From NCBI GenBank assembly GCA_963849325.1, contig CAWKHF010000012.1, forward strand, positions 896,001 through 960,000: a DNA stretch of 64,000 nucleotides, read 5' to 3'. Every line of letters starts with the position of its first letter. Positions within the stretch are counted from its first letter, which is position 1. The notes under the pieces are model-generated. The model searched no databases. It worked only from the letters and a program-made list of their open reading frames with translations, and was not told the origin of the DNA. The translations under genes were made by a program, and so were the position numbers. Positions 2,177-38,143 of the stretch are shown here, piece by piece. This stretch comes from an uncultured Planctomycetota bacterium. GTDB taxonomy: Bacteria; Planctomycetota; Planctomycetia; Gemmatales; Gemmataceae.

Positions 2177-5100
2177 TTATTTCGCCACGCGCAGCAGCAC
2201 CGACCGGGCTGCGTGCTCGCTGTTCTTGCCCTCGCGCCGCGCCAGCACCACGAACGGATGGCTTGTCGCGCTAACCCACGGCTCAGCGGAAATCACAATC
2301 GTCCTGCTCGTCTCCTGCGGCGTGATGAGGATGCCGTTGAGTCCGATGTCGAGTACGCGGACGCCGTGCGGCAACCCTTTCACGTCCAGCGGAATCCGAC
2401 CTCGAAAGCCGTTGCGCCGCTCGACCGTCACGGTCAGGCGCACCTCGCCGCCCGGCTTGACGGTGACTTCCGTCTGTCCCGTCGTCGTCACGATGTCGCC
2501 CGGCTCGATGACCTTCGGAACTCCGCCCGTTGCCTCGCGTACCATTTCCTTGCTGTCGAAGACGGCGCGAGCGATCAGCTTCAGGGGCGGCGCCTTGGCC
2601 GGGATAGTGGCAGTCGTCTCGGCGTAGAGAGCGAAGCTGGTGCTGTTTTCGTGGGCCGGAATGGTCGTGACCGGGGCGTGGAAGCCCGGCGGCAGGTCCA
2701 CCAGGCGGACCTCGATCGGTCCCTCGAAATCGTCATGGCGGTCGGCGATGACGTTGATGGCGACGGCGCCGCCCTTGTGGACGGTCGGCGCGATTGGGCC
2801 GAAGTTGACGGTGAAGCTCTGCCGCGGCGGACGCACGGTCAACTGGTAGGCGTAGTGAGGCCCACCCTGCCCGCGGGCGTCGCCGATACGCACCTGGTAT
2901 ACGCCGTCGGCGGGCGGGTCGAAGACGAGCCGCGAGTCCTTGCCGAAGGCGCCGCCGCCGTCGTCATTGCGATAATACAGAGTGACAATGGGCAGACCGT
3001 TCGCCGGGAAGGTCGTGCCGGGTGGATGGATCGACACCTTGTACATCGGCTGACCGAGGGGATGGAACGTCGGCGTGGTGCCGAGGTAGCCGCGCCGCCG
3101 ACCGCCGAGGCTCCAGAACTGGCAATCGTCGTCGGGGTTCTTCGGCAGCGCCCAGATGCGCAGCAACTCGTTGCCCAGGAGCATGTAATCGTCCATGGCC
3201 AGCTCGCTCCACGTCTCGATACGGATGCCCGTCGAGTTGGAATCGTGGTCGCGGAAGGTGGCATATGTTTTGGCAAGGCTGCGGAGCGTGGCGCGGGGCA
3301 GGAGCCGGCCTTTGTCGTCGAATACCTCGATCACCGAGTCGAGCGGCGAGCCGATCCGTCGTGCATTCACTTCCAGCAGGAAACGCTGTCCCTTGTTCGC
3401 CCGGAAGCGCCAGGTCTGTGTCGCGCCCGGCTGTCCGATGCGGCCGTTGGCCGTGCCGGGCACGGGAAGCGCCGCTCCTTCCACCGAGGAAGAGACTTGC
3501 GGGAACTCCTCGACCAGGACCGTCGGATTGCCGAGGGCCTTGATCGCCAGCGGCACCGGCAAGCGCGAAGCAAGGGCGGCGTTGTCCGGCGCCTTCACAC
3601 GCACGGAGCGAATGGGACCGAGATTGACGCCTTGCAAATGGATGTCCGCTTCCGTGCCGCGTTGCAGCCCGAGCGGAAAGACACTGCCGACAATGGGGAG
3701 TTCGCCGGTCTCCAATCGATACTTCATGCTGGGATCACCGCGATACTCGCGGTCGCGGATGCCGAGGGCGTACCACCCCGCCTGGACGCAAATGTGGCCG
3801 AGCAAGCCGTTGGTGCTCTCGGCCAGAACGTGGCCGTCGGCGTCGATCAGTTGCAGTACCACGTCGAGCTTGGCCTTGTCGGCCGGCTGCACGCGCACGC
3901 CGACCTCCTGGCCTTTCCGCCCCTCGAAGCGGTAATAATCCACGTCGCCGGCCCGGCCGATGCTGCCGATCACGGTCGCCGGCAGCCGGATCGGCTGCCC
4001 GGTACGCGGCGAATCGTTCGGCTCCTTCTCGCCGACGGGAGGCCGAGGTTTGATCGGCAGCGGTTCGGCCTGCGCTTTGCCGGTCGCCGCGTCGAGCAAG
4101 ACGAGAACACCATCGTAACGCCCCAGCGCCAGCTGCTTGCCGTCGGGACGAATGGCGAGACGGAGGGCCGTTTCGGGCTGCCGGTCGAACACACGGCGTT
4201 CGACCATGTTCGCGGTGTCCCACGCCTTGACGGTACGGTCCTCGCCGAGCGAGTACAGCGTCTTGCCGTCGGCGGCGTAGGCCAGGCGGACGACCGGCGC
4301 TTCGTGAGCGAAAACGGAATGCACAACTTTGCCGCCCTCGGCGGAGACCTGCCAGACGCGAATGCTTTTGTCCACGCCGGCCGCCGCCAGGTGCCGCCCA
4401 TCGGGACTCCAGGCGACGGCATAGACCCAGTCGGTGGACTCGCCCAGCGTGTACAGCCGCCTGCCGCTCGCCACGTCCCACACCTTGACAGCACGATCCG
4501 CCGCCACCGAGGCCAGCAGCTTGCCGTCCGGGCTGAAGGCGATGCCATACACGGAATCGCTGTGGTCCTTCAGGACGCGCAGCTCTTTCTTCACCGGCGA
4601 GGCCACGTCCCACAGTTTGATGAGCCGATCGTATCCGCAGCTCGCCAGCAACTTGCCGTCGGGACTGAAGGCGATGTCGTGAATGACGTCCGGATGTGTG
4701 TTGACGACGATCTCACCCGCCACGCTGGGGATGGCCCCCTCGGTGAAGTCATGGAGGCGAACTTCATGGACTTCGCCCATCGCACTGCTGGCGACGGCAA
4801 GCTGCTTGCCGTCGGGCCGAAACGCCAGGGCCGTCACGCGCGGATGCTGCCGCTCCACCTTCGCCAGCAAATCGCCCGTGGCGGTATCGAACAGGTAGAC
4901 CAGGCCGCGACCGCCGGCCGCGAGGACATGCCCGTCGGGATGATAGGCCAGCGCGGCGACGGGAGCGGCGACCGGCGCTTTCGGGCGAATGTCCGGGACG
5001 GTGACGCGGACGGCGCCGTCCTCCTTCGCCCCCGCATCGATCCAAGCCCGCAGCAGGGCGACCTCCTCGGGGCGCGGCTGCTTCTCCTTCTTGGGCGGCA

Positions 5101-5377
5101 TGAACGGCTTTTCCTTATGCTCGACCAGGCGGACGATGCGGCTGGCGTCGGCCTTACCAGGCGTGAGCACCGTGCCCTTGTCGCCGCCTTCGAGCAGCGA
5201 CTTGTACGTCTCCAGGTCCAGGCCGCCCTTGGGTTCGTCGCTGTTGTGGCATTCCGAGCAGTAACGGGCGAAGAACGGCTTGATCTGTTTGGCGTAGCTC
5301 GTCGTTTCCGCGCGGGATGAGGTAGGCGTGAGAGCCGCGAACAGAGCAGCCAGAAGAGAAAAGCGAAGGAAGCGCAT
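2177..5377 (-). CDS. Secreted protein with a planctomycete cytochrome c domain, WD40 repeats and PPC-like domains
   Basis: Signal peptide, CSECH heme motif followed by MPP and WIDAGA, repeated AFSPDG...D..VKVWD WD40 units, GDVDYYRF PPC-like motif. Confidence 0.9.
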   Translation of the reverse strand: MRFLRFSLLAALFAALTPTSSRAETTSYAKQIKPFFARYCSECHNSDEPKGGLDLETYKSLLEGGDKGTVLTPGKADASRIVRLVEHKEKPFMPPKKEKQPRPEEVALLRAWIDAGAKEDGAVRVTVPDIRPKAPVAAPVAALAYHPDGHVLAAGGRGLVYLFDTATGDLLAKVERQHPRVTALAFRPDGKQLAVASSAMGEVHEVRLHDFTEGAIPSVAGEIVVNTHPDVIHDIAFSPDGKLLASCGYDRLIKLWDVASPVKKELRVLKDHSDSVYGIAFSPDGKLLASVAADRAVKVWDVASGRRLYTLGESTDWVYAVAWSPDGRHLAAAGVDKSIRVWQVSAEGGKVVHSVFAHEAPVVRLAYAADGKTLYSLGEDRTVKAWDTANMVERRVFDRQPETALRLAIRPDGKQLALGRYDGVLVLLDAATGKAQAEPLPIKPRPPVGEKEPNDSPRTGQPIRLPATVIGSIGRAGDVDYYRFEGRKGQEVGVRVQPADKAKLDVVLQLIDADGHVLAESTNGLLGHICVQAGWYALGIRDREYRGDPSMKYRLETGELPIVGSVFPLGLQRGTEADIHLQGVNLGPIRSVRVKAPDNAALASRLPVPLAIKALGNPTVLVEEFPQVSSSVEGAALPVPGTANGRIGQPGATQTWRFRANKGQRFLLEVNARRIGSPLDSVIEVFDDKGRLLPRATLRSLAKTYATFRDHDSNSTGIRIETWSELAMDDYMLLGNELLRIWALPKNPDDDCQFWSLGGRRRGYLGTTPTFHPLGQPMYKVSIHPPGTTFPANGLPIVTLYYRNDDGGGAFGKDSRLVFDPPADGVYQVRIGDARGQGGPHYAYQLTVRPPRQSFTVNFGPIAPTVHKGGAVAINVIADRHDDFEGPIEVRLVDLPPGFHAPVTTIPAHENSTSFALYAETTATIPAKAPPLKLIARAVFDSKEMVREATGGVPKVIEPGDIVTTTGQTEVTVKPGGEVRLTVTVERRNGFRGRIPLDVKGLPHGVRVLDIGLNGILITPQETSRTIVISAEPWVSATSHPFVVLARREGKNSEHAARSVLLRVAK

Positions 5378-5515
5378 GATGATATGTCTCAGTTTTTTTC
5401 GTTAGCCCAGCCCTTCAGAGGATATTGCATCCGCTCGGCGATTGCAACGCAACGCTTTCTCGGGAAAAAACCGGAGAGGTTTCCTCATTCCTCTCGGATG
5501 GAGGCGCCTCCCCTC

Positions 5516-6130
5516 TCAGGGTAGTTGGGCCACAAGTCCGGTGAGCGGGTCGAAGACATCGATGCGCGAAGTGGTCAGGAATCGAGATGGGAAAAGAACA
5601 AGGCAATCGTGACCAGGGTTTGTGGCGGATGGATACACAATTCCCTCGAAGTGGCCATCGTGGAACACCGCGTCTCCCAGCACTTGCGTCGGAGCATTCG
5701 GGACTCCCTTCCAGGGCGCGAGGATTTCGGTAACCGCCTGGATGCCGAGTTGGAGACGAGTGAGTGGGTCGCGGAGGTCCAAGAGACGGGATGCGCGAAC
5801 GTGGGCGCCAATCATCGCGACGGGATCGGGACGCAGTCCGCCCGCCGCCAAGAGCGCCTGCCCGGCAGGGGTCGTAGCCGCCTGGTAGTACGGTTGGTTT
5901 CCCTCTCGATGAGCGGTGTCCGCATCGAGCGCGGCGTACAGGGCAGCCGGTCCATTGGGGCGGACAAACCGACTGCCGTAGGCCCCTCCCGCCGCGGCGA
6001 GCAAGGGTTGCACCGTGGCGAAGTTCGAGAAGTGGCGGAGGTGGATGGATCGAAAGATGATGGCGGCAAGGGGGATGGCCTGCGGTCGGGCTGCCGCGAT
6101 CGCCCCAGCGAGGCGGGGCGGGTTAAGCAT
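5516..6130 (-). CDS. RES-domain toxin (putative NAD+ phosphorylase family)
   Basis: FRS, GSRF, ALYAALDADTAHRE, LLDLRD, TQVLG and GIVYPSA..NPG..CLVLF match the RES-domain pattern. Start overlaps the upstream antitoxin stop. Confidence 0.8.
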   Translation of the reverse strand: MLNPPRLAGAIAAARPQAIPLAAIIFRSIHLRHFSNFATVQPLLAAAGGAYGSRFVRPNGPAALYAALDADTAHREGNQPYYQAATTPAGQALLAAGGLRPDPVAMIGAHVRASRLLDLRDPLTRLQLGIQAVTEILAPWKGVPNAPTQVLGDAVFHDGHFEGIVYPSATNPGHDCLVLFPSRFLTTSRIDVFDPLTGLVAQLP

Positions 6131-6542
6131 AGATCGGGCTCGATCCCCACTGCGATTCCAGCGTCCCTAGTACCATTTTCGCCTGCCCCTTGCGAATGGC
6201 ATCCAGAGGGGTCGTCTCGAAGCCTGCCCCTGGACTAACGAGCCACACAAGGGCGGCGGCGTCGGAGCCAAGGTGCTCGGCCAAGAGTTTCCGCATGCGC
6301 TGGAATACGCGCCGATCTTCCGGGCTGAGACCGTCTGCTATCTCGTCGATCTGGGCCTCATCTGGGATGCCGGCCACTGGCGCGATAGACCTATCCTCCA
6401 AAGAGGAAACCGTCGACGGGGCCGGCGATTGTTTACCTGTCTTTCGCCCCCCTGTCTGCTTCGACGCCTTCTTGCCCGAAGAGACCGTGAGGGGATCTTT
6501 CTTCGGTGCTTTCGTCTTGCCGGATCGTTTGGCCTTGCCCAC
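6123..6542 (-). CDS. Xre/MbcA/ParS-type antitoxin (C-terminal toxin-binding domain)
   Basis: GSDAAALVWLVSP...TPLDAI..G...V...LES is typical of the MbcA/ParS C-terminus. GGAGG RBS; lies directly upstream of the RES gene. Confidence 0.75.
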   Translation of the reverse strand: MGKAKRSGKTKAPKKDPLTVSSGKKASKQTGGRKTGKQSPAPSTVSSLEDRSIAPVAGIPDEAQIDEIADGLSPEDRRVFQRMRKLLAEHLGSDAAALVWLVSPGAGFETTPLDAIRKGQAKMVLGTLESQWGSSPIYA

Positions 6543-6607
6543 TGTTCACCTCCTCCACGTCGATTGTATCCCGTTCGTATCGTTCGTTTGGAGGTCAATC
6601 GGAATCG

Positions 6608-9105
6608 TCAACGGTTGAACATGAACTCCTTCGAGGACAGCACGGCCCAGAACAGGTCTTGCAGCGCCTCGCGGCGTGTCGTCTTGGTATCGGCGGCCGC
6701 CTCGGCCAGCAGCACCTGAAACGTCTTCTGCTCCGTCGCCGTCGGCGGACGGCACAGGGCCAGCACGAACAAACGGCGTATCGCCTCGTCATCCGTCACC
6801 TTGTCGCGCAGCCACGTTTCGACGCGCGAACCCTTGGCCCGAATCTTGTCGTTGAGGGTTTGACCATTGTTCAGGTGCAGCGCCTGGCCAACGCTGGAAT
6901 CTTGCTGCCGTTCGCAGGAACACGTCTGGCGCGCTCGGGCCGGCCGAAGGCGTCGAGGAATCGCGACACCACCAGCGAGTCGGGCAGTTGCAGTGCCCGC
7001 GTACCGAGTGGATAACCGCTGTAATTGCTGGCGGAATCGCCGGCGGCCGAGCTGACTTTCGTGAACGACGTCGGCACGCCCGTCACTTCCGAGTAGGCGT
7101 CGAGGATGACCTCGGCCGGCAGGCGGCGGATCAGGTAGTGCGAGTAAAAGCGATCGTCACCCTTGTTGGCCGGCAGCGGCCGCGACGAACGCTGGTAGCT
7201 CGCCGAGTTCAGGATGGTGCGGATCAGGTGCTTGACATCGTACTTGTGAGCGATGAAGTCCTTGGCCAGGGCGTCGAGTAACTCGGGGTTGGTCGGCGGA
7301 TTGGTCTGGCGCAGGTCGTCCTCGGCCTCGACCAAGCCGCGTCCCATGAAGTTGCGCCAGACGCGATTGACCAGCGCCTTGGCGAAATACGGATTGTCCG
7401 CCGCCGTCAGCCAGTCGGCGAGATAGGCACGGCGATCGACGGGGCTGTCCAGTGACAGTGGCTTGCCATCAAGAGGCGCCGGCGGCATGGGCACACCGCG
7501 GCGCAGGTGCGGCACGTCGCCGGACGGCAACGATTGCACGTTGACGTCGCCGGAGCGCTCGCCATTCTTGAGGGCCACACGCGCGAACAGGTTGGCCATG
7601 CTCCAGTATTGGTCCTGCGTCCACTTCTCCAGCGGATGATTGTGGCAGCGACAGCAGGTGATCGACATGCCCAGGAAGGTCACGGCGGTCGCTTCGGTCA
7701 GGTCGGTGATGTCCTTGTGCAGCACGAAATAGTTGGCGGCGCCGTTGTCGAGACTGCCGCCGCTGGCCGTGACGATGTCGCGGGCAAAACGGTCCCACGG
7801 TTTGTTGTCCGCGACACTCTGACGGACGAACTGGTAGAACGACCACACGGCCGGTTGCGGCAGGCGGCGCGTGGTGATGAGCAGCATGTCCGACCACTTG
7901 TACGTCCAGTAATCGACGTACTCCGGCCGTTCCAACAGAGCATCGATCAACCGTGCCCGCTTGCCCGGCGACTTGTCGGCGAGAAACTTCTGTAACTCTT
8001 CCGGCCTGGGCAGGATGCCCGCCGCGTCGAGATAGGCCCGGCGCAGGAACTCGGCATCAGTACAAACCGGCGATGGTGGGATGCGCAGCGCTTCCAGCTT
8101 TCGCAGGACCAGTTCGTCGATGAAATTATGCTTCTCCGCCGAGGTGAATATCTTGGGATCGATGGCGCCCGGCAACGGCGAGGCGATGCGATTGGCGGCG
8201 ACGAGGTTGGAGTACCAGACCGTGATGGCCGCCTCTCCGTGGCCGGCGACCTGGACCAGACCATCGGCGTTGACGGTGGCGACGAGGTCTTCGCTGCTGT
8301 TGAACTTGGCCCAGCGCGTCACGTCTTCGGAATGACCGTCGGAGTACCAGGCGCGGACGACGACTTGTAGCGTGTCCTTGGGCTGGAGGACCGCCGCGGC
8401 CGGCAGCACTTCCAGGCGTTGAATACGAGGGTCGTCGGCGCGCGGTGCCGGCGCCCCGGCGGCGATCCAGTCGGCCAGGACGTGGTAGTCCGCCGAGCCA
8501 GTCTCGATCTTCTGTCCGCCGCCGTGCGGCATCGTCTGCGTCGGCTTGAGCAGGACCAGACTGCGGGCCGGCTCGCTGCGATCGACGCGCCGCCCCAGCG
8601 CCTGCCGCGTCAGTGCGAAATGATCGCTATGCGGGTCGAAGCCGCGTAGTGACAGCTTGAGTCCGCCCTTGCCGGCGAGGGCGCCGTGACAGGATCCGGA
8701 GTTGCAGCCTGTTCGCGTCATCATGGGAATGACGTGATTGCGGAAGCTCCAGCTGAACGGTTCCTTGACCTTGCGAACGGTTACTTTCACGCTGGCTTGC
8801 CGATCGGCGACGACGGCGGTGATCGTCGCCTCGCCATCGTCGGCCGCGCGCACGATACCATTAGCATCTACACTCGCCGCAGCCGGATTGGAGGATGTGA
8901 ACTTCGCCTGCAATGTTCGCTCGCCGACGACTCGTCCGTCTTCCTCGGCAACGACCAGCAGGCGCTGGCTGGCGTGCGGCCCGGTCAGCGTGATGTCCGC
9001 GGGCCGAATCTTCAACTCGGAAGCCACGAGCACAGACGGAGAGAGAGAAAAGCAAAGGCCGATGACGGCCGAACAACAAATGGTGTTCCGCATGATGCGT
9101 CTCAT
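6608..9105 (-). CDS. DUF1549/DUF1553 protein with Ig-like (Big_2) domains; one apparent frameshift near 6930
   Basis: GCNSGSCHG, FLRRAYLD, CCRCHNHP, VNRVWRNFMGRGLV. The C-terminus (QALHLNNG...DLFWAVLSSKEFMFNR) continues in another frame to 6608. Confidence 0.88.
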
Positions 9106-9128
9106 TGCAAATCCGAACCGGAAGCGTA

Positions 9129-9182
9129 AATCCGAGCCTGAAGCGTAAGCGAAGTTCTTCGCTTACGCTTCAGGCTCGGATT
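9129..9182. repeat. REP-like perfect palindrome (26-bp arms)
   Basis: AATCCGAGCCTGAAGCGTAAGCGAAG-TT-CTTCGCTTACGCTTCAGGCTCGGATT, with a degenerate partial copy at about 9110-9129. Confidence 0.85.
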
Positions 9183-10252
9183 GATCTTGTTTTATCCTTT
9201 CGACTTGGCGGCGCGTTCGGGCGCAGCGAGCGGACGACAGTGCCGGCCTGCCACATTTCGCTGTCGGCGACCTCTTTCAACTCTTTTTCGAGCTGTTGGC
9301 GATAATCGCTGCGGCTGTTGGCTTCCAGCACGCGCCGCGTCTCGTCGCCCTCGGCCACCTTGCGATACAGTTCCTCGAACACCGGCCGGGCGGCGTCGCG
9401 GAAGTGCCGAAACCAGTCCAGAGCGCCGCGCTGCGCCGTCGTCGAACAGTTGGCGTACATCCAATCCATGCCGTTCTCGGCGATGAGCGGATACAGGCTC
9501 TGCGTCGCCTCCTCGACCGTCTCGTTGAACGCCTCCGACGGCGAATGGCCGTGCTCGCGCAAGACCTCGTACTGCGCCAGCCACAATCCGTAAATCGCTC
9601 CCATCAGCACGCCGCGCTCGCCGGTCAGGTCGCTGAAGACTTCTTTCTGGAAGGTGGTCTCGAACAGGTAGCCGGAGCCGATGGCGATGCCCAGCGCCAG
9701 CGCTCGTTGTCGCGCCTTGCCGGTCGCGTCCTGGTGGATGGCGAAGCTGGCGTTGATGCCCTTGCCTTCGAGAAAGAGCCGCCGCACCGTCGTGCCCGAA
9801 CCCTTCGGCGCGACGAGAATGACATCGATGTCCTTGCTGGGCACGACGCCGGTCTGGTCGCTGTAGACAATGCTGAAGCCGTGCGAGAAGTACAGCGCCT
9901 TGCCTTTCGTCAGGTGCGGCTTGAGGGAGGGCCAGAATTCCTTCTGGCCGGCGTCAGAGAGGAGATACTGGATGATCGTGCCGCGCTTGGCCGCCTCTTC
10001 CAGCGGGAACAGTGTTTGTCCGGGCACCCAGCCATCCTGCACGGCCAGATCCCAGCTGCGCGTCTTCTCGCGCTGACCGACGATCACCTTGACGCCGTGG
10101 TCCTTCATGTTGAGCGATTGGCCGCGGCCCTGGACGCCGTAGCCGAGGACGGCGACCGTCTCGGGTCCGAGGATGGCTTGCAAGCGCTCGGGTGGATAAT
10201 CGGAGCGCTCCACCACGGTTTCCTTCACGTTCCCAATCTGAATCTGGCGCAT
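9170..10252 (-). CDS. ilvC: Ketol-acid reductoisomerase
   Basis: VLGYGVQGRGQSLN, YFSHGF, VAPKGSG, SDLTGERGVLMG, EAFNETVEE, NCSTTAQRGALDW. Confidence 0.95.
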   Translation of the reverse strand: MRQIQIGNVKETVVERSDYPPERLQAILGPETVAVLGYGVQGRGQSLNMKDHGVKVIVGQREKTRSWDLAVQDGWVPGQTLFPLEEAAKRGTIIQYLLSDAGQKEFWPSLKPHLTKGKALYFSHGFSIVYSDQTGVVPSKDIDVILVAPKGSGTTVRRLFLEGKGINASFAIHQDATGKARQRALALGIAIGSGYLFETTFQKEVFSDLTGERGVLMGAIYGLWLAQYEVLREHGHSPSEAFNETVEEATQSLYPLIAENGMDWMYANCSTTAQRGALDWFRHFRDAARPVFEELYRKVAEGDETRRVLEANSRSDYRQQLEKELKEVADSEMWQAGTVVRSLRPNAPPSRKDKTRSIRA

Positions 10253-28022: not shown

Positions 28023-29242
28023 ATGAAATACGTCATCGTCATCCCGGACGGCTGTGCGGATGAACCGCAGGAATCGCTGGGCGGCAAGACGCCGTTGCAG
28101 GCGGCCCACAAGCCGAACATGGACCGCATTGCCCGCGAGGGCGTGGTCGGCCGCTCCAACAACGTGCCGCCGTCACTGACGCCGGCCAGCGATGTGGCCA
28201 CCCTGAGCCTGTTCGGCTACGACCCCTTGATCGTCTACACCGGCCGAGCGCCGCTGGAGACGGCGGCGATGGGCATTGCGCTCGGCCCGGACGACTGGGC
28301 CATCCGCTGCAACCTCGTCCACGTCGCCAACGAGTGCATGCGCGACTTCACCGCCGGACACATCTCCAGCGAGGAAGGCCGGCCGCTCATCGAGGCGCTG
28401 CACGCCGAGCTAGGCGGCGCAAGGGGACCGGACGGCGCTCGCCTCGAATTTCACCCCGGCGTCAGCTATCGCAACATCCTCGTCTATCGCCCCGCTTCCG
28501 GCACCACGGCCCCCTTCTCGGCGCAGACGAAGACGCAGCCGCCGCACGACGTTCCCGATCGGCCCATCGCCGACCACCTGCCGAATGGGCCCGGAAGCGA
28601 TCTGTTAAGGAGCTTGATGGAGCGAAGCCGTCCGATCCTGCACGATCATCCGGTCAATCGCGAACGCCGCGGCGCGGCCAGCGCGACGCGACCCAGACAT
28701 GGCTGTGGGGCCAGGGGCGAGCGCCGCACTTACGGCCGTTCGCCGAGGTATACGGCAAGCGCGGGGCCATCATCAGCGCCGTCGATCTGGTGCGCGGCGT
28801 CGGCGTGCTGCTGGGCTGGCAGCGCATCGACGTGCCGGGCGCGACCGGTTATCTCGACACCGACTACGCCGCCAAGGGCCGCGCCGCCGTCGCCGCCCTG
28901 CCGCATCACGATCTCGTTTGCGTCCACGTCGAGGCGCCGGACGAGGCGTCGCACGAAGGCCGCGCCGACGCCAAGGTGCAGGCGCTGGAGGAGATCGACC
29001 GTCACATCGTCGGCCCGCTGCTGGAGGCGCTGCCGCGACACGGCGATTGGCGTATTCTCGTCTCGCCCGATCACCGCACGCCGCTGCGGACGCGCGCTCA
29101 CGCCTATGGCATGGTGCCGTTCGCCTTCGCCGGCAGCGGCGTCGTCAGCAAGGGACAGGCGTCTTACGATGAGGTTGTCGCCGAGGCGAGTGATCTGGCG
29201 TTCGAGAAGGGACACGAGTTGATGCGGCGTTTTCTCGGGTAA
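28023..29242 (+). CDS. apgM: Cofactor-independent phosphoglycerate mutase (ApgM type); apparent frameshift near 28670
   Basis: PDGCAD...KTPLQAA..PNMD, ASDVA, YTGRAPLE; second frame has HVEAPDEASH and SPDHRTP. Confidence 0.9.
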
Positions 29243-29307
29243 AGGCGCGTCGGAGAATAGCTTCCGTCTCGCGGTGGCTCGCAGAATCGCATTCTGGGTT
29301 GTAGGTC

Positions 29308-30534
29308 ATGAAAGCATCCTCCGGTAGCGAATGGTTCGAGGATGCCCTTGACGGGTTCACGGCGTACTTCCTGACCAGTCTGCCGGTCCTTCTTGGGGTT
29401 CTGTTCGGGGCAGACTTCCTGTACGGTCGTGATCGGCAGGTTGTCCCGCGCCTCGATCCGGTTTCCGCCTCTATCCATTTTGACGCTTACCACTACCTGG
29501 ACATCATTCGAACGGGTTACTCCTACAACCCGACGCGCCAGTCGCGGGTCGCCTTCTTCCCGGCTTATCCATTCCTCGCCCGCTGGCTGAGCCAGGCTAC
29601 GGGACTACTGCCGGAAGAGGCGGCGCTGTTGGTAGCCCACGTCGCACTCCTCGCTGCCTTTGTGCTTCTGGCTCGCTATGTCCGCCTACGCTGGCCGGAA
29701 GCGACCGCGGGTCAGCGCGGTATGGTATTGGTCGTTTTCGGCCTATGGCCCTTGGGGCTGTTCTTTCGCATGCCGTACAGCGAGAGCCTATTCCTGTGCA
29801 GCATGTTGGCTCTGCTCTACGGTATGGCCCGGAGATGGCCGCTGGCCGTCCTGGCGGTTCTGGCGGGCTTCGGCACCGCCGTCCGTCCGGTGGGGGTAGC
29901 TCTGACGGCCGCCTTTGCTTGGTACGTCCTGACACGAACCGGACAATCATGGGGGAAGAAGGCCGCTTGGGTGTTGTTGCTGACGCCCTTGGCCTGTTGG
30001 GGGTTATTGAGCTACATGGGGTATCAGTGGTTGGCCTTCGGCACGCCCTGGGCCTTCGCCCAGACACAAGAACATTGGAGCATGTTGGCCCCACCGGATC
30101 GCAGCTGGCCGGCAAAGCTGGGATCGCTGGCGATCCTGGAGCCGATCTGGGGAGCGTATCTACCCGACTACCCGCGCTACTGGGCTAACGCTGAGGAACA
30201 GACGAGTCCGCTGTTCAGCCTGATCTTCTGGAACCCAGTCTTGTTCGTGCTGGCGTGGGCGCTGCTGGGGCTGGGGGGCTGGAAACGCTGGTTGACGGGA
30301 AGCGAACTGGTTCTGGGGATGACCTTGCTGGCCATTCCCTATCTGACGCGCAGCTACGAGATGTCGATGGCCGCTCATGGCCGCTTCGCCGCTGTGGTCG
30401 TCGTCAATTACCTGGTTATCGGCCGGCTGCTGGCTCGCGTGTCGCCCCTGGTCATGGCCGCTGTATACGCGGTCTTCGCCTTGGGGATTTGCCTGCTCAC
30501 GGCCCTTTACGCGACGAACCATCTCATTTTCTGA
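29308..30534 (+). CDS. PIG-V/Gpi18-like membrane mannosyltransferase (GT-C)
   Basis: FDAYHYLDIIRTGY...AFFPAYP, PYSESLFL, VRPVG, FAQTQEHW. Confidence 0.82.
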   Translation: MKASSGSEWFEDALDGFTAYFLTSLPVLLGVLFGADFLYGRDRQVVPRLDPVSASIHFDAYHYLDIIRTGYSYNPTRQSRVAFFPAYPFLARWLSQATGLLPEEAALLVAHVALLAAFVLLARYVRLRWPEATAGQRGMVLVVFGLWPLGLFFRMPYSESLFLCSMLALLYGMARRWPLAVLAVLAGFGTAVRPVGVALTAAFAWYVLTRTGQSWGKKAAWVLLLTPLACWGLLSYMGYQWLAFGTPWAFAQTQEHWSMLAPPDRSWPAKLGSLAILEPIWGAYLPDYPRYWANAEEQTSPLFSLIFWNPVLFVLAWALLGLGGWKRWLTGSELVLGMTLLAIPYLTRSYEMSMAAHGRFAAVVVVNYLVIGRLLARVSPLVMAAVYAVFALGICLLTALYATNHLIF

Positions 30535-30733
30535 CCGAATGTAAATGTTTATATTCCGGAAGTTTACGACGGAATATGGAATATAGACCTCCGCCCCTCT
30601 TGCCGATTTCCTTTCGGTTTGGTAAGAAAAGCTCATTACGAGAAACCATCCATCCAAGCAGAACTGCCCTCCGTAGCCCGATGGTTCCCAGGAAAAATAG
30701 GGAAGCAGAGGTAATCCAGCCGTGTCCAGACAC

Positions 30734-31832
30734 ATGACCTTGCGGTGGTGGAGGAGAGGGCTTTTCTCGGTCTGCGCCGCACTGTTCCTGTTTTCGCTTT
30801 TCCTGCTGATCGCCAGAAAGAAATTCCCCGAAGCGTCCGCCAACGGAGGCAGCAGTACGTCTTCGCCTGCGGCGGAGCGCGCGGAGACCAAGTACGCGCT
30901 CGAGCACGACTTCGGCATGGTGAAGCCGGAGGAATCGCTGACGCACCGATTCCACATCCATAACGACACGTCCCTCCCCTGGACGGTCCAGAAAATCCAT
31001 AGCATGCTGTGCTTGCACGGTCGGCCGGCTGTCCCGGCCCGTTATCCCTCCGGGCGAGAGCGGGGATGCGGAGTTGACGTACCGAGCGCCCTCCGACGAG
31101 GGCAACGATCAACGCACGGTCACGATCGAGTTTGAAGACGAGAACAGCCCTGTTTACGCGCTGACAATTCGGGCGCGCATTCGGGAGCCGTTGAGCATCG
31201 ACCCCAAGCAGCTTAACTTCCCCCACGTTAACAGGGGGCAAGAGGTTGCGAACTTTCTGCAAATCCGCAATCACACGGAGCGGGACATCGAATTGTCCTC
31301 CGTCCAATCGGACTGCCCCTGGCTCTCCGTGGACCGTCCGATCCTGGAAAACGTCAAGGGTCCGGCGGGAGAGGCGCGGCAGGTCTGGCGTGTGCCGGTG
31401 CGGGCGGTAACGCACGACCTGCCTTCGGGATGGCACGAGGCCAAGGTGGAGGTCCGGACCAGCGACCCCAAGGCAGGCAGCAAACAGGTCGCCGTGCATT
31501 TGCAGGTCAACGAACCTGTCGAAGCCTGTCCCGCCCAGATGTTTTTCGGGACCATGCCGGCACAGGGGACGGCCCGCCGCCTGGTTCAACTGCGTTTCTC
31601 CTCGGAACAGGCGGCGCCGGCCGGCCCGGAAGCGATTGTCCTCCGGCACGACTTGAACGAGACGCTGCGGTTGACTTGCCTGCGGCGAACGGCGGCATGC
31701 TGGGAACTATCCGGGACCATCGCGGCAGGGCAGAATCCGGGCGTGATCCAGGGAACCATCGAGGTGAGCTTTCCCGGTCTCGCGCTCCCATCGCTGAAGA
31801 TTCCGGTCCTGGCCCGAGTGGAGGGACCATGA
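30734..31832 (+). CDS. DUF1573 (Ig-like) membrane-anchored protein; frameshift(s) near 31000-31070
   Basis: N-terminal TM, HDFGMV...HRFHIHN, then P.QLNF and P.QMFFG repeats in the second frame. Confidence 0.75.
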
Positions 31833-32559
31833 GCATCTGGAAGCGATGCCTGGGGCTATTGGCGCTGGCCGTCACTGCGACCTGCTGGTCCGTGGCCGGG
31901 ACCGCGCAAGGCCGCGCTGACGAGAAATCGGAAGATCCGCCGCCAACGGAGCGCCCCGCTGGCGACATGGTTCTGTGGTCCGCGCTGCGTGCAATTTCTC
32001 TTACGCCACTACGATCGCGGCCAGGACGTGGATCTGATCGACCTGGCGCGAGACGCAGTGGCCGAACTTTGAAGCCGGAGCGACGCTGGACGCGCTGGAG
32101 CGCGCTCTGCAAAAGCGCGGGGTCTACACTTGTGCGTTGCGGATCGATCCGCGCGACCGCCTGCGCTGGCCCTATCCGGTCCTCATGCATCTCAAGGGTC
32201 CGTCCGCGCTGGGGCATTACGTTGTCTGGCTGCCCTCGTCGGCAGAGGAAAGGGCGGAGGTCTGGGCAGGCCTGTCCGGGATTCAAGCGGGCGACGCCGA
32301 CCATTTGGCGGGGCGGCGTTCGGGGGTGATCTTGCTGACCTCCTCGGAGCCGATTGCCCATCCGGAAGCAGCCGTGTACCGGCCTATGCGCGTGTGGCCC
32401 TGGCTATTGGCCGCCGTCAGCTTTGCCCTCACGCTGGCGCTCTTCAAGCCAGGCGTTTATCGGCCGCTGCGGCAGTTGGCTCGAAGCATGATCGGGAAGG
32501 ACGGAAAAAGCTGCGCTGACTCTGAGACTGTCAGCAACGCGCCGGTTCGAGTTTCCTAA
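31829..32559 (+). CDS. Stand-alone exported C39-like cysteine peptidase with C-terminal TM; two apparent frameshifts (about 31970 and 32050)
   Basis: Signal peptide. A third frame reads FCGPRCVQFLLRHY (CGPRC at 31974-31988). The protein then continues QWPNFEAGATLDALERALQKRG...PVLMHL...GHYVVW and a TM helix. ATGA overlap with the upstream gene. Confidence 0.75.
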
Positions 32560-32579
32560 CCATGAAAGGTGAGTGTCCG

Positions 32580-33167
32580 ATGAAGAGCCGAGTGCTGGTT
32601 GCGTTCGTGGCGGCGATCAACGTGATCGCCCTGGCCCTGTTGCTCGATTCATTCGCCGGGAGGACGCCTTTGCCTCTCGTTGCGGCGGAAAAAAAGGTTG
32701 TTCGGGGAGGGCAATGCTATGAGACCGTTACCAAAGCCTGTAAAAAGGTAAACACCCGCTGCGACAAGCAGGAGTGCAGTGAAACGAAGATTGTAGACCA
32801 GACGTTTCACAGCTGCCCGGCCGGTTCAAACCAGGACAAAACCATCCCCGATAAGACGTTCCCAGGTTGCAAAAAGGTCAAGAAGGGGTCGGCAGACTGT
32901 TATATAAACACCTATCCATGCATCAATCGCGGCCCTTGCGTAACGGTAGGTCTGAAACAATGCAAGAAGGTTGAGGTCAGGGATCCAAAGAATCCCAAGA
33001 AGCTTGAGACTAAATATTACTGCCAGTACCAGGGCCCAACAGAGGAGCTAAGCAACTTTGGCTTTTATGCCGGGGGCGATGCATGTGATGTCAGCCAGCT
33101 TGACCTTCCGGTCGATACGGCGGTCGCGCTTGCCAACGGGCTGGAATTCAAGGTTTTCCACTACTGA
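32580..33167 (+). CDS. Secreted Cys-rich protein with a double-glycine-type leader
   Basis: Hydrophobic signal, LVAAEKKVVRGG, then a Lys-rich core with 12 Cys; AT-richer codons. Confidence 0.72.
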   Translation: MKSRVLVAFVAAINVIALALLLDSFAGRTPLPLVAAEKKVVRGGQCYETVTKACKKVNTRCDKQECSETKIVDQTFHSCPAGSNQDKTIPDKTFPGCKKVKKGSADCYINTYPCINRGPCVTVGLKQCKKVEVRDPKNPKKLETKYYCQYQGPTEELSNFGFYAGGDACDVSQLDLPVDTAVALANGLEFKVFHY

Positions 33168-33287
33168 GAAAGTGTTCTTGGCGAGCGAAGTTGCGTTAGC
33201 GCCTCGATTGTTTCTCTCAAGGCGCTGACGCAACCCAACTCGCCGGAGTTTTTCTCCATACGGGACACCGCAACAGAGGCCGCAATC

Positions 33288-34439
33288 ATGAAGAATTTTC
33301 GCCTTACCTTTCTCTTCCTCTGTGCACTGCTCATGGCGATACCTTTCGCATCTGGCGGCAACGCGCCACCCAGCCCAGGAAAAGAGATATTCCCTTTTGT
33401 CTGGGCGGGACTCAAAGATAATCGCGAACGCTTGCGTCGAGGCGCCTTCCGCGTCAAGGGACGCAAGATCGATGATGATCCCAGGGGACGACGCCTCGAT
33501 AGCGACATGACCATTTTTTGCGCCTTCGATTATGATAAGGATCTGTTCCGCTTCGATCGTGCGGAACCCGAATTCTTCACGAAAGAGCCCCTCGTCGATC
33601 GCGGCCAAGGACCGAAAGCCCTTGAGGAGCAGGGCCGGAAAATGAGGAGCGACCCAAAGGATTGGGTCGAAAGGAATGTCGGCGGCAAGTGGGCGAAATC
33701 GGAAACCCAATGCATCAGCTGGAGCATACAGGGCAACTCGGTCAGCATCTTAAGACCACATGAGGAGCCGGACTCCTCCTTAAGGATCTTCGACGTTCGC
33801 ACGCTAGGATTGTTAATTTGGGGCAACTTGGTGGACAGGGGCACTTCCTGGAAGGACACCTGTGAACTGTATCCGGAACTTCCTTTGGAAGCCGTTCAGG
33901 AACGCAAGGGTCTGTACCGTTTTCGCTGGGTTGAGAATGCCTCAATTCCTCTCCGCAAAACCCTGTGGGTAGACGAGGCACAGGGATTTTCGCCTGTCCG
34001 GCTGCACACGCAGGAGGGCCAAACCAGCAAGGATGGCATCAAGTGGTCCGAGCCGGATATAACGAGCGAAGTCGAATCCGTTTGCATTGGTGGAGTATGG
34101 GTGCCACATACCTTCCGCATCGAGACTCGTGAGTCTGCACCGTGGTTCCGGAGTTACCAGTGGACTTTCGCGTGGGAATCCGTCAATGAACCAGTCGCCG
34201 AGTCGCTCTTCACCGTCGAGGGCATGGACTTACCCAAAGGCACACCGGTGATCGATTATCGTCTCGGCGAGCCGATCCTCAAGGGCCGCATCGGCGAGGA
34301 GCCTTCATCGACGGCCGGCCAAACACCTCTGCCCGGTTTCCTGCGTCGCTATGGGCTCTGGCTTGTGGTGCTCGGCGGCGTGGCGGTCGCCTGCATCCTG
34401 GTCTACTGGCGCGTTCGTTCCCCCAAGCCAACCTCCTAA
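33288..34439 (+). CDS. Secreted beta-rich hypothetical protein with C-terminal TM anchor (possibly LolA-like)
   Basis: Signal peptide, FDVRTLG, LWVDEAQGFSPV, VWVP, SVNEPV...LF, terminal TM plus basic tail. Confidence 0.7.
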   Translation: MKNFRLTFLFLCALLMAIPFASGGNAPPSPGKEIFPFVWAGLKDNRERLRRGAFRVKGRKIDDDPRGRRLDSDMTIFCAFDYDKDLFRFDRAEPEFFTKEPLVDRGQGPKALEEQGRKMRSDPKDWVERNVGGKWAKSETQCISWSIQGNSVSILRPHEEPDSSLRIFDVRTLGLLIWGNLVDRGTSWKDTCELYPELPLEAVQERKGLYRFRWVENASIPLRKTLWVDEAQGFSPVRLHTQEGQTSKDGIKWSEPDITSEVESVCIGGVWVPHTFRIETRESAPWFRSYQWTFAWESVNEPVAESLFTVEGMDLPKGTPVIDYRLGEPILKGRIGEEPSSTAGQTPLPGFLRRYGLWLVVLGGVAVACILVYWRVRSPKPTS

Positions 34440-34473
34440 CGGGAGCCGCCGTAAGCGGCAGGCTCTTTCTATC

Positions 34474-35505
34474 ATGCTTATCCTCTTTCCGCGTACTGTC
34501 TGTCCGCATACCGGGGAGCCGAGTGACAAGGTCCGTCCACGCCATGCGTCGAGAAGCCAGCCAGGGTTTACTCTCGTGGAACTGCTGGTCGTTCTCGCCA
34601 TCATCGGGGCGCTCCTCGGCCTCTTGCTCCCCGCTGTCATGCGTGTCCGCGAAGCGGCGAGTCGGGCACGCTGCGCCAACAATATGAAGCAGCTCGCTCT
34701 GGCCGTCCATCTATATCATGACGACTTCCAGCGCTTGCCGCCCGGCGCGATCGGCCCCTATCAGCAGCCCGTCCCCGGCCAACTCTACTACGGTTGGGGA
34801 TCCTCCTCCTACGGATGGAGCTGGTTGTCCCGAATCCTTCCCTATGTTGAGCAAGCTCCCTTGTTTCAATTGGGAGGTATCCCGTCTACGACACTGGCCC
34901 AGAGCAACATTGCGGCCAGCCGCATCGTCCCCTTCCTCTGCCCCAGCGATACGGCCTACAACGCGCCTCCTCGTACCGATACGGGCAACCTGGAGGGCTT
35001 TCCGGTCGGCAACACCAACTACAAGGGGGTCAGCGGCTCCAACTGGGGCTACGACTCGTCCCAGAACGCCTGGTTCCCTACGCTGTGGCAGCACCAGGGT
35101 ACGAACGGCTCCTACGACGGACTGAGCCAGGGAGACGGAGCCATGTTCCGCATCGACATCTTCGTCCCCCGTGGACTGCTGGCCATCACCGACGGATCCT
35201 CCAATACCTTCTTGATCGGCGAGGACATTCCAGTCCTGAACAACTGGTGCTCCTGGCCTTACGCCACCCACGCTTACGGCACCTGCGCTATCCCTCCCAA
35301 TGCCGTGCAACCCAACGGTCAGCCCTTCGACCCCAACGAGTGGTACAACAATCACTCCTTCCGCAGTAGGCATCCTGGCGGCCTCCAGTTCGCTTTCGCC
35401 GACGGTTCGGTGCATTTCGTGTCCACCGCGATCAACCTCGATCTCTACCGCGCTCTGGCGACGATTCAGGGTGGAGAGGTCGTGGATGTGTCGCGGCTCG
35501 ATTGA
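34474..35505 (+). CDS. DUF1559 prepilin-type N-methylation protein with H-X9-DG motif
   Basis: GFTLVELLVVLAIIG.L.GLLLPAV..VREAA.R..C.NN.KQ and SRHPGGLQFAFADGSVHF. Confidence 0.93.
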   Translation: MLILFPRTVCPHTGEPSDKVRPRHASRSQPGFTLVELLVVLAIIGALLGLLLPAVMRVREAASRARCANNMKQLALAVHLYHDDFQRLPPGAIGPYQQPVPGQLYYGWGSSSYGWSWLSRILPYVEQAPLFQLGGIPSTTLAQSNIAASRIVPFLCPSDTAYNAPPRTDTGNLEGFPVGNTNYKGVSGSNWGYDSSQNAWFPTLWQHQGTNGSYDGLSQGDGAMFRIDIFVPRGLLAITDGSSNTFLIGEDIPVLNNWCSWPYATHAYGTCAIPPNAVQPNGQPFDPNEWYNNHSFRSRHPGGLQFAFADGSVHFVSTAINLDLYRALATIQGGEVVDVSRLD

Positions 35506-35560
35506 CTGCTCTCCGCAACTTCCGCGTAATTTCGAGAAGGGATGTCGGAAGCGATTCGAT

Positions 35561-38143
35561 TCACGAACGCAGATCGCGCTTCCAGCGGCGCACGGCCGCC
35601 ACGACTTGCTCCGGCGTCGCCTGGCTCAAATCGAACTCGCGCAGTGCTTGCAGGACCGGATCTTCCATGTGGGCGAACAGGCTGCGCTGCACGACGCGCG
35701 GCTGACGGATGCGGCCGGGTCGATCCGGCGCGTGGACGTGATGCGCCTCCAGTTCGGCGAGCACTTCGCGGGCGCGGACCAGCACTTCCTCCGGCACGCC
35801 GGCGCTGGGCCACGTGAATGCCGTAGCTCTTGTCGGCGCTGCCCGCGGCGATCTGGTGCAAAAACACAATGCCGTCGGCCCCCTCATGGACGCGCACGTT
35901 GTAGTTGCGCAGTCCCGGCAGACGCTCGGCCAGCTGCGCCAGTTCGTGGTAGTGGGTGGCGAACAGGGTGCGGCAGCCAATGCGATCGTGCAGGTATTCG
36001 GTGAGGCCCCAGGCCAGCGAGACGCCGTCGTAGGTGCTGGTGCCGCGGCCGATCTCGTCGAGGATGACCAGGCTGCGCGGCGTGGCGTTGTTGAGGATGT
36101 TCGCCGCCTCCGTCATCTCCACCATGAACGTGCTCTGGGCGCGGCTCAATTCGTCGCTGGCGCCGACGCGCGTGAAGATGCGATCGACCAGTCCGATCGT
36201 CGCTCGTCGCGCCGGTACGAAACTGCCCAGCTGGGCCAGGAGCGCCAGCAAGGCCGTCTGCCGTAGATACACCGACTTCCCGCCCATGTTCGGTCCGGTA
36301 ACGAGCAAAAAGAAGCCGTCGTCCGGCCCCATGGTTACGCCGTTGGGCACGAACGTGCCCGCCGGCAGCGTTTGATCGAGGACGGGATGCCGGCCGTCCT
36401 CGATGCGCAAGATCGGTTCGTCGCTCAGTTCGGGCCGGCAGTAGTTGCGTTCGGCCGCCAGCTCCGCCAGGGAGGCCAGCACGTCGAGCGTGGCCAGCAC
36501 TTCCGCCGTCTGCATCAGCCGATTCGTCTGCGCCGCCACGCGCTCACGCAGCTGCGCGAACAGCTCGTATTCGCGTTCCTGCAGCCGTCCCTCGGCTTGC
36601 ATGACCTTCTCGGCCATGTCGGACAGATCGCCGGTGATGTAGCGATCGGCATTCTTGAGCGAACGGTGCAACCGATAGTAGGCCGGCACCTTGCTCTTGT
36701 GGGTGTGCGTCACCTCGATGTAATAGCCGTAGCCCTCGGTGAAGCCGACCTTGAGGCTGGTGATGCCGGTATCGCGGGCTTCCTTGGCCGCATAGTCGGC
36801 CATCCACTGCTTGCCGCCGGTTTTCAAATCGAACTGGCGGTCGAGTTCCTCGTCGTAGCCACGGCGGATGATGCCGCCCTCGCGCGGACTGATGGGCGGG
36901 TCGTCCACCAGGGCGGACTCCAGCGCCTCGCGCAGCTCGGGGCACACTTCCAGCCGCCCTTCCAGGTCGCGCAACAGGACCGACTCGCGGTCCTTCACCT
37001 GCGCCTTGATGCGCGGCAGGAGGGCGAGTGTCCGGTTGACCGCGGCCAGGTCGCGCGGCGAGGCCCGTCCCGTACACACCCGCGTCGTCAGCCGCTGCAA
37101 ATCGAGTACGTCCGCCAGGCTCTCGCGCAGCTCTCGGCGCGGCCCGTGTTCGCCCAGTAACTCCTCGACGGCGTCCAACCGGGCGCGGATGGCCGGACGC
37201 TCGGCCAGCGGGGCCAGCACCCAGTCCTGCAACAGACGCGCCCCCATCGGCGTCATGGTGCGGTCGAGCACGGCCAGAAGCGAGCCGGTGCGGGCATTGT
37301 CGCGCAGGGTCCGCGTCAATTCCAGACTGCGGCGCGTCACCTCGTCCAGATACAGGAAGCGCTGCTCGGAGTACGGCCGTAGGCGGCTCAGGTGGGCGAG
37401 GCTGGCCTTGAACGTTTCCTGAAGATACAGCAGCAACGCCCCGGCGGCGTTCAGGGCCGGCTGGTTGTCGTCGAAGCCAAAGCCGGCCAGGGTGCTGACC
37501 TCGAAGTGGCGGAACAGGGCGCCGCGCGCCGTCGGAGAATCGAAGGTCCAGTCCGGCCGGGGCGTGAGGATCAGCCGCGGCATCGCCTCGCGGACACGAT
37601 CCAGCAGTCGCTCCGTCTCGGCGGTGAGGGACTCGGCGCACAGGCACTCCGATGGGGCCAGGCGCAGCACCTCGTCGGCCAGGCGTTCGCGCGGCACGTC
37701 GGCCGCCTGGAACAATCCGGTGGACAACTCGACCCAGGCCAGGCCGGCCGGCGTTCGTCCGCCCGGCGGCGTCAGCGCGATCAGGTGATTGGCCCGTCGC
37801 GGATCGAGCAGGTCGTCCTCGGTGAGCGTGCCGGGCGTGACGACGCGGATGACCTCGCGGCGAACCGGCCGGCCTTTCACCTGCCGCGGGTCTTCCATCT
37901 GCTCGCAGATGGCGACGCGGTGGCCGGCTTGCAGCAGTTTACCCAAATAGCGATCGAGGGCGTGATATGGCACGCCCGCCATGGGGATTTCCTTGTCGCG
38001 GCGGGTCAGGGTGATGCCGAGCAGTCGAGAGCCGACCTCGGCGTCCTCCTCGAATAGCTCGTAAAAGTCGCCATTGCGGAACAGCACGATCGTACCGGGG
38101 TGGCGTCCTTGGCCTCCCGGTACTGCTGCATCATCGGAGTCAT
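35561..38143 (-). CDS. mutS: DNA mismatch repair protein MutS; apparent frameshifts near 38100 and 35805
   Basis: MTPMMQQY, FRNGDFYELF, TGPNMGGKS, STFMVEM, DEIGRGTS, FATHYHEL, SYGIHVA. Confidence 0.95.

Follow-up and report, generated by a model that had tools for sequence, protein, structure and literature searches.

Six co-oriented genes lying between apgM and mutS in an uncultured planctomycete of the family Gemmataceae are one copy of a modular cassette that recurs in Planctomycetota. The genes were analyzed within a 64,000-nucleotide stretch of contig CAWKHF010000012.1 (hereafter the window), in which apgM ends at position 29242, the six genes follow, and mutS converges on them. The cassette is real and recurrent, and no description of it was found in the literature searched, most subscription journals and all supplements being outside that search. 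Its parts have known relatives; no counterpart of the whole assembly was found. We favor the reading, with a probability of roughly 0.55, that the cassette serves the extracytoplasmic maturation and delivery of a small, disulfide-bonded protein that diversifies, and that this protein, here termed the cargo, acts between cells. The genes are designated g1 to g6:

29308..30534, plus strand: g1, predicted GT-C glycosyltransferase, distantly PIG-V-like, accessory member; 408 amino acids (aa), about 8 predicted transmembrane (TM) segments, Asp59 after TM1
30734..31832, plus strand: g2, DUF1573 (Ig-like) protein with N-terminal anchor; PF07610 at 38 bits; frameshift near 31000
31829..32559, plus strand: g3, C39 peptidase without ABC domain, carrying a signal at the N-terminus and a TM anchor at the C-terminus; 243 aa; two frameshifts
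32580..33167, plus strand: g4, cargo, 195 aa; signal peptide, pro-peptide ending LVAAEKKVVRGG and a 151-aa mature part with 12 Cys
33288..34439, plus strand: g5, periplasmic protein of LolA-superfamily fold (predicted structure), with signal peptide and C-terminal TM anchor; no Pfam model
34474..35505, plus strand: g6, DUF1559 (SBP_bac_10) prepilin-type protein with H-X9-DG C-terminus; start uncertain, either 34474 or about 34546 with an extra frameshift

An initial annotation of this DNA had noted the six co-oriented genes between apgM and mutS, an ATGA overlap (g2 with g3, 31829-31832) and a 20-bp gap (g3 to g4, 32560-32579), all of which were confirmed in the sequence. Its statement that every product is a membrane or exported protein agrees with the signal or membrane segment predicted in 6/6 island products.

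Recurrence of the cassette

Gene neighborhoods were surveyed around three anchors, with co-occurrence counted within 6.5 kb of each. The C39 anchor matched 57/201 genomes of the class, some matches being ABC-fused; 59 regions were picked from 126 matches for short open frames and contig room, together with one match in the host genome, and counts were taken over the 59 C39-anchored loci where the anchor was seen. LolA-fold genes occurred in 52 of these, DUF1559 in 49, DUF1573 in 33, MauE in 9 and a GT-C gene in 1. For the LolA anchor, 60 loci were picked for contig room from the best 150 of 307 matches; DUF1559 was present in 54, DUF1573 in 42, C39 in 7 and GT-C in 1. The 37 loci of the GT-C anchor, several of them ended early by contig ends, included LolA-fold (14), DUF1573 (13), DUF1559 (11) and C39 (4). 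As background, 8% (0.08) of random sites in the host genome have a DUF1559 gene within 7 kb. These counts show recurrence, not exact rates, because the profiles were built from the same loci and kin are non-independent. The host genome carries a second cassette, locus L002, which is C39-free. The C39 and double-glycine (GG) step is in fact optional, both elements being absent from most LolA-anchored cassettes.

The same modules are also found joined within single frames. In-frame fusions, read from stop-to-stop frames, link C39 to the LolA-fold domain (2 frames), to DUF1573 (7 distinct fusions) and to DUF1559 (1), and MauE to DUF1559 (3) and DUF1573 (1). An Atlas cluster of 311 members, reached by a search run on the homologue P0129, has a similar LolA-type fold joined to C39. 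A survey of this kind had been proposed in the initial annotation, which expected its interpretation to fall if the genes did not co-occur in other genomes or if homologous loci lacked a Cys-rich GG precursor. The interpretation survives on both counts because co-occurrence of the genes, along with a variable Cys-rich gene, is seen across Planctomycetota, and GG leaders accompany C39.

The LolA-fold gene is a marker of the cassette. Relatives of g5 numbered 12 by word search and 2,299 representatives (at 50% identity) by profile; a narrow g5 profile matched 5/301 genomes of the phylum, and a broader LolA-fold profile matched 109/201 sampled genomes of the order. No Pfam model covers this family. 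Minimal loci with LolA-fold and DUF1559 genes and no cargo call were seen at L234, L236, L246, L252, L264, L268 and L273; these are possibly the core unit, or possibly loci in which the cargo was overlooked by our rule.

Cargo leaders, the C39 peptidase and the LolA-fold protein

Small Cys-rich secreted proteins were called as cargo by rule; the calls are uncurated and a few are probably false. Cargo was called in 42 C39-anchored loci and in 37/60 LolA-anchored loci, and among the latter a candidate was present in 33/42 loci with DUF1573 versus 4/18 without it. The 92 cargoes fall into 76 clusters, almost all mutually unrelated, and the Cys count is even in 66/91. Together they are a large set of unrelated proteins, rich in disulfides, whose mature N-termini can be predicted. 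For g4, no relatives were found among 1,171 candidates scored. Its predicted cleavage, after LVAAEKKVVRGG, would leave a mature protein beginning QCYETV. This leader window is the best in g4 at 10.3 bits, mid-range for cargoes of C39-containing loci, with the next-best window near zero, and it has L(-12), E(-8), G(-2) and G/A/S(-1). Tandemly duplicated cargo genes, in two or three similar copies, were observed in L174 (7030-8455), L186 (10314-12616), L271 (6652-7621) and L290 (7490-9697).

The 42 training cargoes yielded the leader motif L/V(-12), S(-11), E(-8), L(-7), V/L/I(-4), G(-2) in 40/42, and G/A/S(-1). When a strict leader rule was applied to the LolA-anchored test set, it was satisfied by 3/6 cargoes from C39-containing loci versus 0/31 from C39-free loci (p 0.003), and a rank test on the leader profile likewise separated the two groups (p 0.001). 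In that set the spacer from signal peptide to first Cys is 25-33 residues where C39 is present versus a median of about 11 where it is not. The strict rule gave 3/4 versus 0/8 in the GT-C-anchored set, and a looser rule gave 39/51 versus 5/35 when all sets were pooled. The pairing of C39 with a GG leader that had been proposed for this island is supported across loci, GG-type leaders going with signal-peptide C39. Judged from sequence, the Cys region of the cargo begins soon after the signal peptide in C39-free cassettes, whereas C39 cassettes have an extra predicted pro-peptide of GG type, and it is this pro-peptide that tracks the C39 gene.

The g3 reading, carried through its frameshifts with X, matched a C39 profile built from 34 locus homologues at E 1.6e-19. 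Its unbroken C-terminal piece alone scored 16.7 bits against PF03412, below the cut-off of 22; in the C39 alignment A1, PF03412 was matched by 5/6 rows with E<=0.1, the best value being 7e-18. When four locus homologues were combined with the two window pieces in one profile, structures of ComA and PCAT1 were matched with E between 3e-15 and 1e-13, the lowest value being for ComA 3K8U. The CGP and GHY motifs of g3 align with the family columns for catalytic Cys (31/34) and His (33/34), and the Gln preceding the catalytic Cys is found in only 7/35 C39 rows. An N-terminal hydrophobic segment is present in 31 of the 34 locus C39s (residues 7-23 in g3) and a C-terminal TM segment in 33. Several cassette C39 proteins (L119 at 6225-7340, L174, L180 and L182) are 340-410 aa long, and the one that was scanned, from L119, has a C-terminal rhodanese domain. 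Elsewhere in the host genome, a 930-aa frame at G000:C1:309645 (L141) contains a C39 domain, probably in ABC-fused form, and G000:C5:925428 (L142) gives a weak stand-alone C39 match.

The cassette shares with the PCAT/AMS exporters (ComA, PCAT1-CtA, LahT) the C39 fold, the Cys-His dyad and the L(-12)/E(-8)/GG leader signature; the available text of PMC8277102 gives the PCAT signature as L(-12)-x3-E(-8)-L(-7), with which the cassette motif agrees. The architecture of those exporters was not found. The cassette C39 has a signal peptide and a C-terminal anchor, g3 has no ABC domain and no ABC gene is present in the window cassette, the leader stands behind a Sec-type signal, and the partners are a LolA-fold protein, DUF1573 and a prepilin. 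The cargo is also larger, about 150 aa versus the roughly 10 kDa that the source text available gives for active PCATs.

The only other periplasmic or stand-alone C39 found in the literature searched was FapD of the Pseudomonas Fap amyloid system (PMC5557850), which, as far as the available text of that paper goes, is likewise a stand-alone periplasmic C39 with a Sec signal, encoded in a secretion operon and with a proposed GG/GA target. The same text presents FapD as needed for Fap secretion, with its own target not settled, and describes the Fap proteins as lacking canonical leaders, whereas in the cassette the protease goes together with a canonical leader. Because C39 and GG pro-peptide occur as a matched pair, the cassette points to a cognate substrate for its periplasmic C39; FapD has none so far. 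None of the six island products is N/Q-repeat-rich or a barrel, and g4 has no amyloid repeats, in further difference from the Fap operon with its amyloid-repeat subunits and FapF barrel. The earlier suggestion that no such system had been characterized accordingly agrees with the literature searched for the cassette as a whole, of which no description was found there, but not for a periplasmic, ABC-independent C39, for which FapD is a precedent.

Sequence searches of g5 and of g1 against Pfam or PDB returned nothing useful. The AlphaFold model of g5 from a 143-row alignment reached pLDDT 90 (31 when folded from the single sequence) and matched the LolA superfamily by Foldseek at E 2e-7. Its top VIA matches were all LolA-like, with Z 13.0-13.7 (the best 13.7 and 13.5), rmsd of about 5 and 207-210 residues aligned, and the model has the open beta-barrel with helical lid of that superfamily. 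The modeled structure thus identifies g5 as a predicted periplasmic protein of the LolA superfamily, a group characterized by binding of lipid or lipoprotein. The chaperone or immunity role that the initial annotation suggested for g5 is conjectural. The fold is shared with LolA, P. gingivalis LolA3, DUF1329/TP_0789-like proteins, LprG and RseB/MucB; g5 differs in its identity of only about 10%, its larger size, its C-terminal membrane anchor and its lack of a Pfam match. As read from its sequence, g4 has no lipobox, and no lipoprotein cargo is known for g5. Co-folding of g5 with mature g4 scored 0.00 with the partner fold uncertain, a result that carries no weight in either direction.

Proposed pathway and alternative explanations

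From the linkage of the genes, the periplasm-facing topology and folds of their products, the diversity of the cargo and the association of leader with protease, we infer the following steps. The cargo would be exported by Sec and its signal peptide removed, after which disulfides would be formed by the cassette MauE where present and otherwise by host enzymes. Cleavage behind RGG by the anchored C39 would then release the mature protein, QCYETV..., the pro-peptide having either acted as a safety catch or assisted folding. Both anchored partners, LolA-fold and DUF1573, might bind, shield or hand on the cargo, and the DUF1559 prepilin would connect it to an exit or display apparatus resembling a pilus or type II secretion system. 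The cargo is most likely a bacteriocin-like antagonist or a kin-recognition factor; its activity and its exit route are both predictions. GT-C would be an add-on that modifies pilin or envelope more likely than cargo.

Methylamine dehydrogenase maturation clusters combine MauE/MauD with a Cys-rich small subunit. MauE likewise stands beside a small disulfide-rich exported protein in 9/59 C39-anchored loci, although the cassette cargo is hypervariable and not a conserved enzyme subunit, and the window copy has no MauE. According to the available text of 10.64898/2026.03.05.709764, MauE substitutes for DsbB.

A broader proposition is that this is a widespread undescribed pathway of Planctomycetota in which an anchored LolA-fold carrier, together with an Ig-like partner and a prepilin dedicated to the task, delivers hypervariable disulfide-rich proteins, with C39 and GG pro-peptide gained or lost as a matched pair and the inner modules swapped. 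We hold this tentatively, at somewhat less than even odds. If true, it would give a role to part of the DUF1559 expansion and would define a polymorphic-effector system without an ABC exporter.

A number of observations weigh against the delivery of a processed cargo as set out above. The g4 leader has Lys at -7, not Leu; Leu is present there in 19/42 training cargoes. No cargo was called in 23/60 LolA-anchored loci, many of which consist of LolA-fold and DUF1559 only. The looser leader rule is missed by 12/51 C39-associated cargoes and satisfied by 5/35 C39-free ones, one C39-free cargo scored 8.8 on the leader profile, and some rule matches sit on a window other than the obvious GG. The test set is small, with only 6 C39-containing loci, and the first leader profile, which was over-fitted, gave 1/6 versus 0/31 at fixed thresholds (p 0.16). 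On the best LolA tree the coupling of leader and C39 amounts to 8 changes, and an independent-pairs test on that tree found 1 supported pair (p 1). Repeated co-evolution of leader and C39 is not established because only 1 of the 8 changes is forced by well-supported branches, and the coupling may reflect one inherited event. The g5-type LolA-fold domain also occurs within an ECF-sigma/LRR protein (P0210) and a BlaR1-M56 protein (P0250), and because of these fusions it need not be a cargo carrier. Finally, g3 is broken by frameshifts in the window copy, and its third triad residue is Ala, where the 34 homologues have Asp (28), Asn (4) or Glu (2).

The fusions of P0210 and P0250 would fit a signaling module, in which a cargo serving as pheromone or stress cue is sensed by the anchored LolA-fold protein in the manner of RseB/MucB, with output to ECF sigma control. 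ECF sigma genes adjoin L002 and L109, MucB (Z 7.7) and RseB (Z 6.6) are among the fold matches of g5, and GG-leader peptides include quorum pheromones (ComA). However, LolA proteins of the lipoprotein-carrier type match g5 far better (Z 13) than RseB and MucB do, the cytoplasmic tail of g5 is short and the window cassette has no regulator, and we consider this explanation unlikely.

Alternatively, the cargo might be a variable tip or adhesin displayed on the DUF1559 pilin and assembled with the help of the LolA-fold and DUF1573 proteins, GG cleavage activating assembly as FapD does for Fap, whose secretion requires FapD activity (available text of PMC5557850). LolA-fold with DUF1559 is the most constant pair (54/60) and can occur without a cargo call, and both C39 and MauE are found fused in frame to DUF1559. 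On the other hand, genomes carry an expanded set of at least 41 DUF1559 genes each, frequently with signal-peptide genes next to them, according to the available text of PMC8567305, the window cassette has no outer-membrane channel gene, and no sign of polymer formation was seen. Surface display of this kind thus appears improbable as the function of the cassette. Few planctomycete proteins are as expanded and as little understood as the DUF1559 prepilins, for which the cassette supplies testable partners.

It is also doubtful, in our view, that delivery of a matured cargo holds for the family while the window copy is degenerate, with a weak or dead protease and real frameshifts. The Ala at the third triad site and the three frameshifts (one in g2 near 31000 and two in g3 near 31970 and 32046) would be expected in such a copy. 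However, the g2 and g3 frameshifts are probably assembly errors because the adjoining housekeeping gene apgM is also split into two frames and the C-terminus of mutS appears shifted. The catalytic Cys and His of g3 are retained, the leader of g4 scores in the middle of its range, and g1, g4 and g5 are unbroken.

The glycosyltransferase, prepilin and flanking sequence

The g1 family resembles PIG-V/GT76 (PF04188), a group defined by a mannose donor and a glycolipid acceptor, in being multi-TM, in having an acidic residue in the extracytoplasmic loop that directly follows TM1, the position of the GT-C acidic motif (described in the available text of PMC6801728), and in weak PF04188 matches of 16/47 aligned members at E<=0.01 (best 1.8e-9); the protein P0072 reaches 26.9 bits against a cut-off of 22.4. 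It differs in that g1 itself has no Pfam match and carries a single Asp, Asp59, kept in at least 93% of 106 homologues, rather than DxD or DD. We regard g1 as a GT-C-like, distantly PIG-V-like, predicted glycosyltransferase, with relatives in 21/151 genomes of the family. The DUF1573 assignment of g2 exceeds its PF07610 cut-off of 26.1 bits, and the X read-through matches a locus-built profile at E 4e-33. For g6, a DUF1559 and N_methyl match at E 7e-40 is accompanied by PF07963, PF07596 and TIGR04294 scores above cut-off. Hidden Markov model searches proposed beforehand for Peptidase_C39, DUF1573, Mannosyl_trans2 and DUF1559 were therefore successful for DUF1573 and DUF1559, while the C39 piece fell below its cut-off and g1 went unmatched. 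An ATG at 34546 would give g6 a typical short basic prepilin leader, but in another frame (window 34474-34570).

GT-C genes are rare accessories, enriched beside cassettes and linked more to one pilin subtype than to cargo. A g6-type pilin occurs in 8/11 GT-C loci having DUF1559 versus 3/103 DUF1559-bearing loci from other anchors, and one of those 3 is the same pilin as in L040. From the pilin side, 7/94 g6-type matches, the window included, lie on the same contig as a GT-C match and within about 13 kb of it, by coordinates only, compared by eye. At L040, a locus of a congener, the counterparts of g1 and g6 share 65% and 80% identity with the window genes; its DUF1573 match is weak (29% over 83 residues), g3 and g5 have no tblastn match there, and its cargo is leaderless. 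In L109 the two outer genes are 59% and 67% identical and enclose a different C39-containing core. Because g1 and g6 are conserved while the inner genes differ in L040 and L109, these comparisons suggest that inner modules of cargo and carrier are exchanged while the outer genes are kept, and that the GT-C acceptor is more likely pilin or envelope than cargo.

That glycosylation of the cargo by the PIG-V-like enzyme is an integral step, a possibility raised by the initial annotation and favored by LolA-fold genes within 6.5 kb in 14/37 GT-C-anchored loci and by GT-C genes directly beside cargo genes in L002, L008, L109, L110 and L113, is quite improbable and has to be regarded as unsupported, because GT-C is so rare in cassettes from the other anchors (1/59 and 1/60) and is tied more to a pilin subtype; nor do cargo Ser/Thr content (p 0.96) and sequon content differ with or without GT-C (15 versus 76 cargoes).

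GT-C homologues were also seen back-to-back with a large Calx-beta or unannotated secreted protein and a probable helical-repeat partner (L001 at 7474-9560, L114 at 4777-8607 and L124 at 4977-9194), and this Calx-beta-type gene pair appears to be a second cassette type sharing the GT-C glycosyltransferase. A second GT-C gene, with weak PMT_2 matches below cut-off, lies near the PIG-V-like gene in L115 (2432-4036), L118 (54-1493) and L129 (3652-5421).

The island has a GC content of 0.60 versus 0.64 for the window. The view that parts of it are AT-richer than the host applies to g4 (0.53) and g5 (0.57), the main source of the drop, but not to g1, g2, g3 and g6 (0.62-0.65). Homologue labels indicate Planctomycetota, with Gemmataceae named in several, and no plasmid match was found for g5. 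No empty apgM-mutS site was seen among the congeners' listed matches, because apgM and mutS match different contigs there. No terminal repeats or att-like sites were found in 28900-36200, and a promoter and terminator scan was close to chance level. One further element was identified:

33179..33246, no strand assigned: palindromic REP-like hairpin directly 3' of g4; fold z -4.6

Five copies of this hairpin are present in the host genome, two of them after cargo genes (that of the window and L002 at 9539-9617), and copies are numerous in congeners. The hairpin could be a stabilizer of the cargo transcript or a chance insertion.

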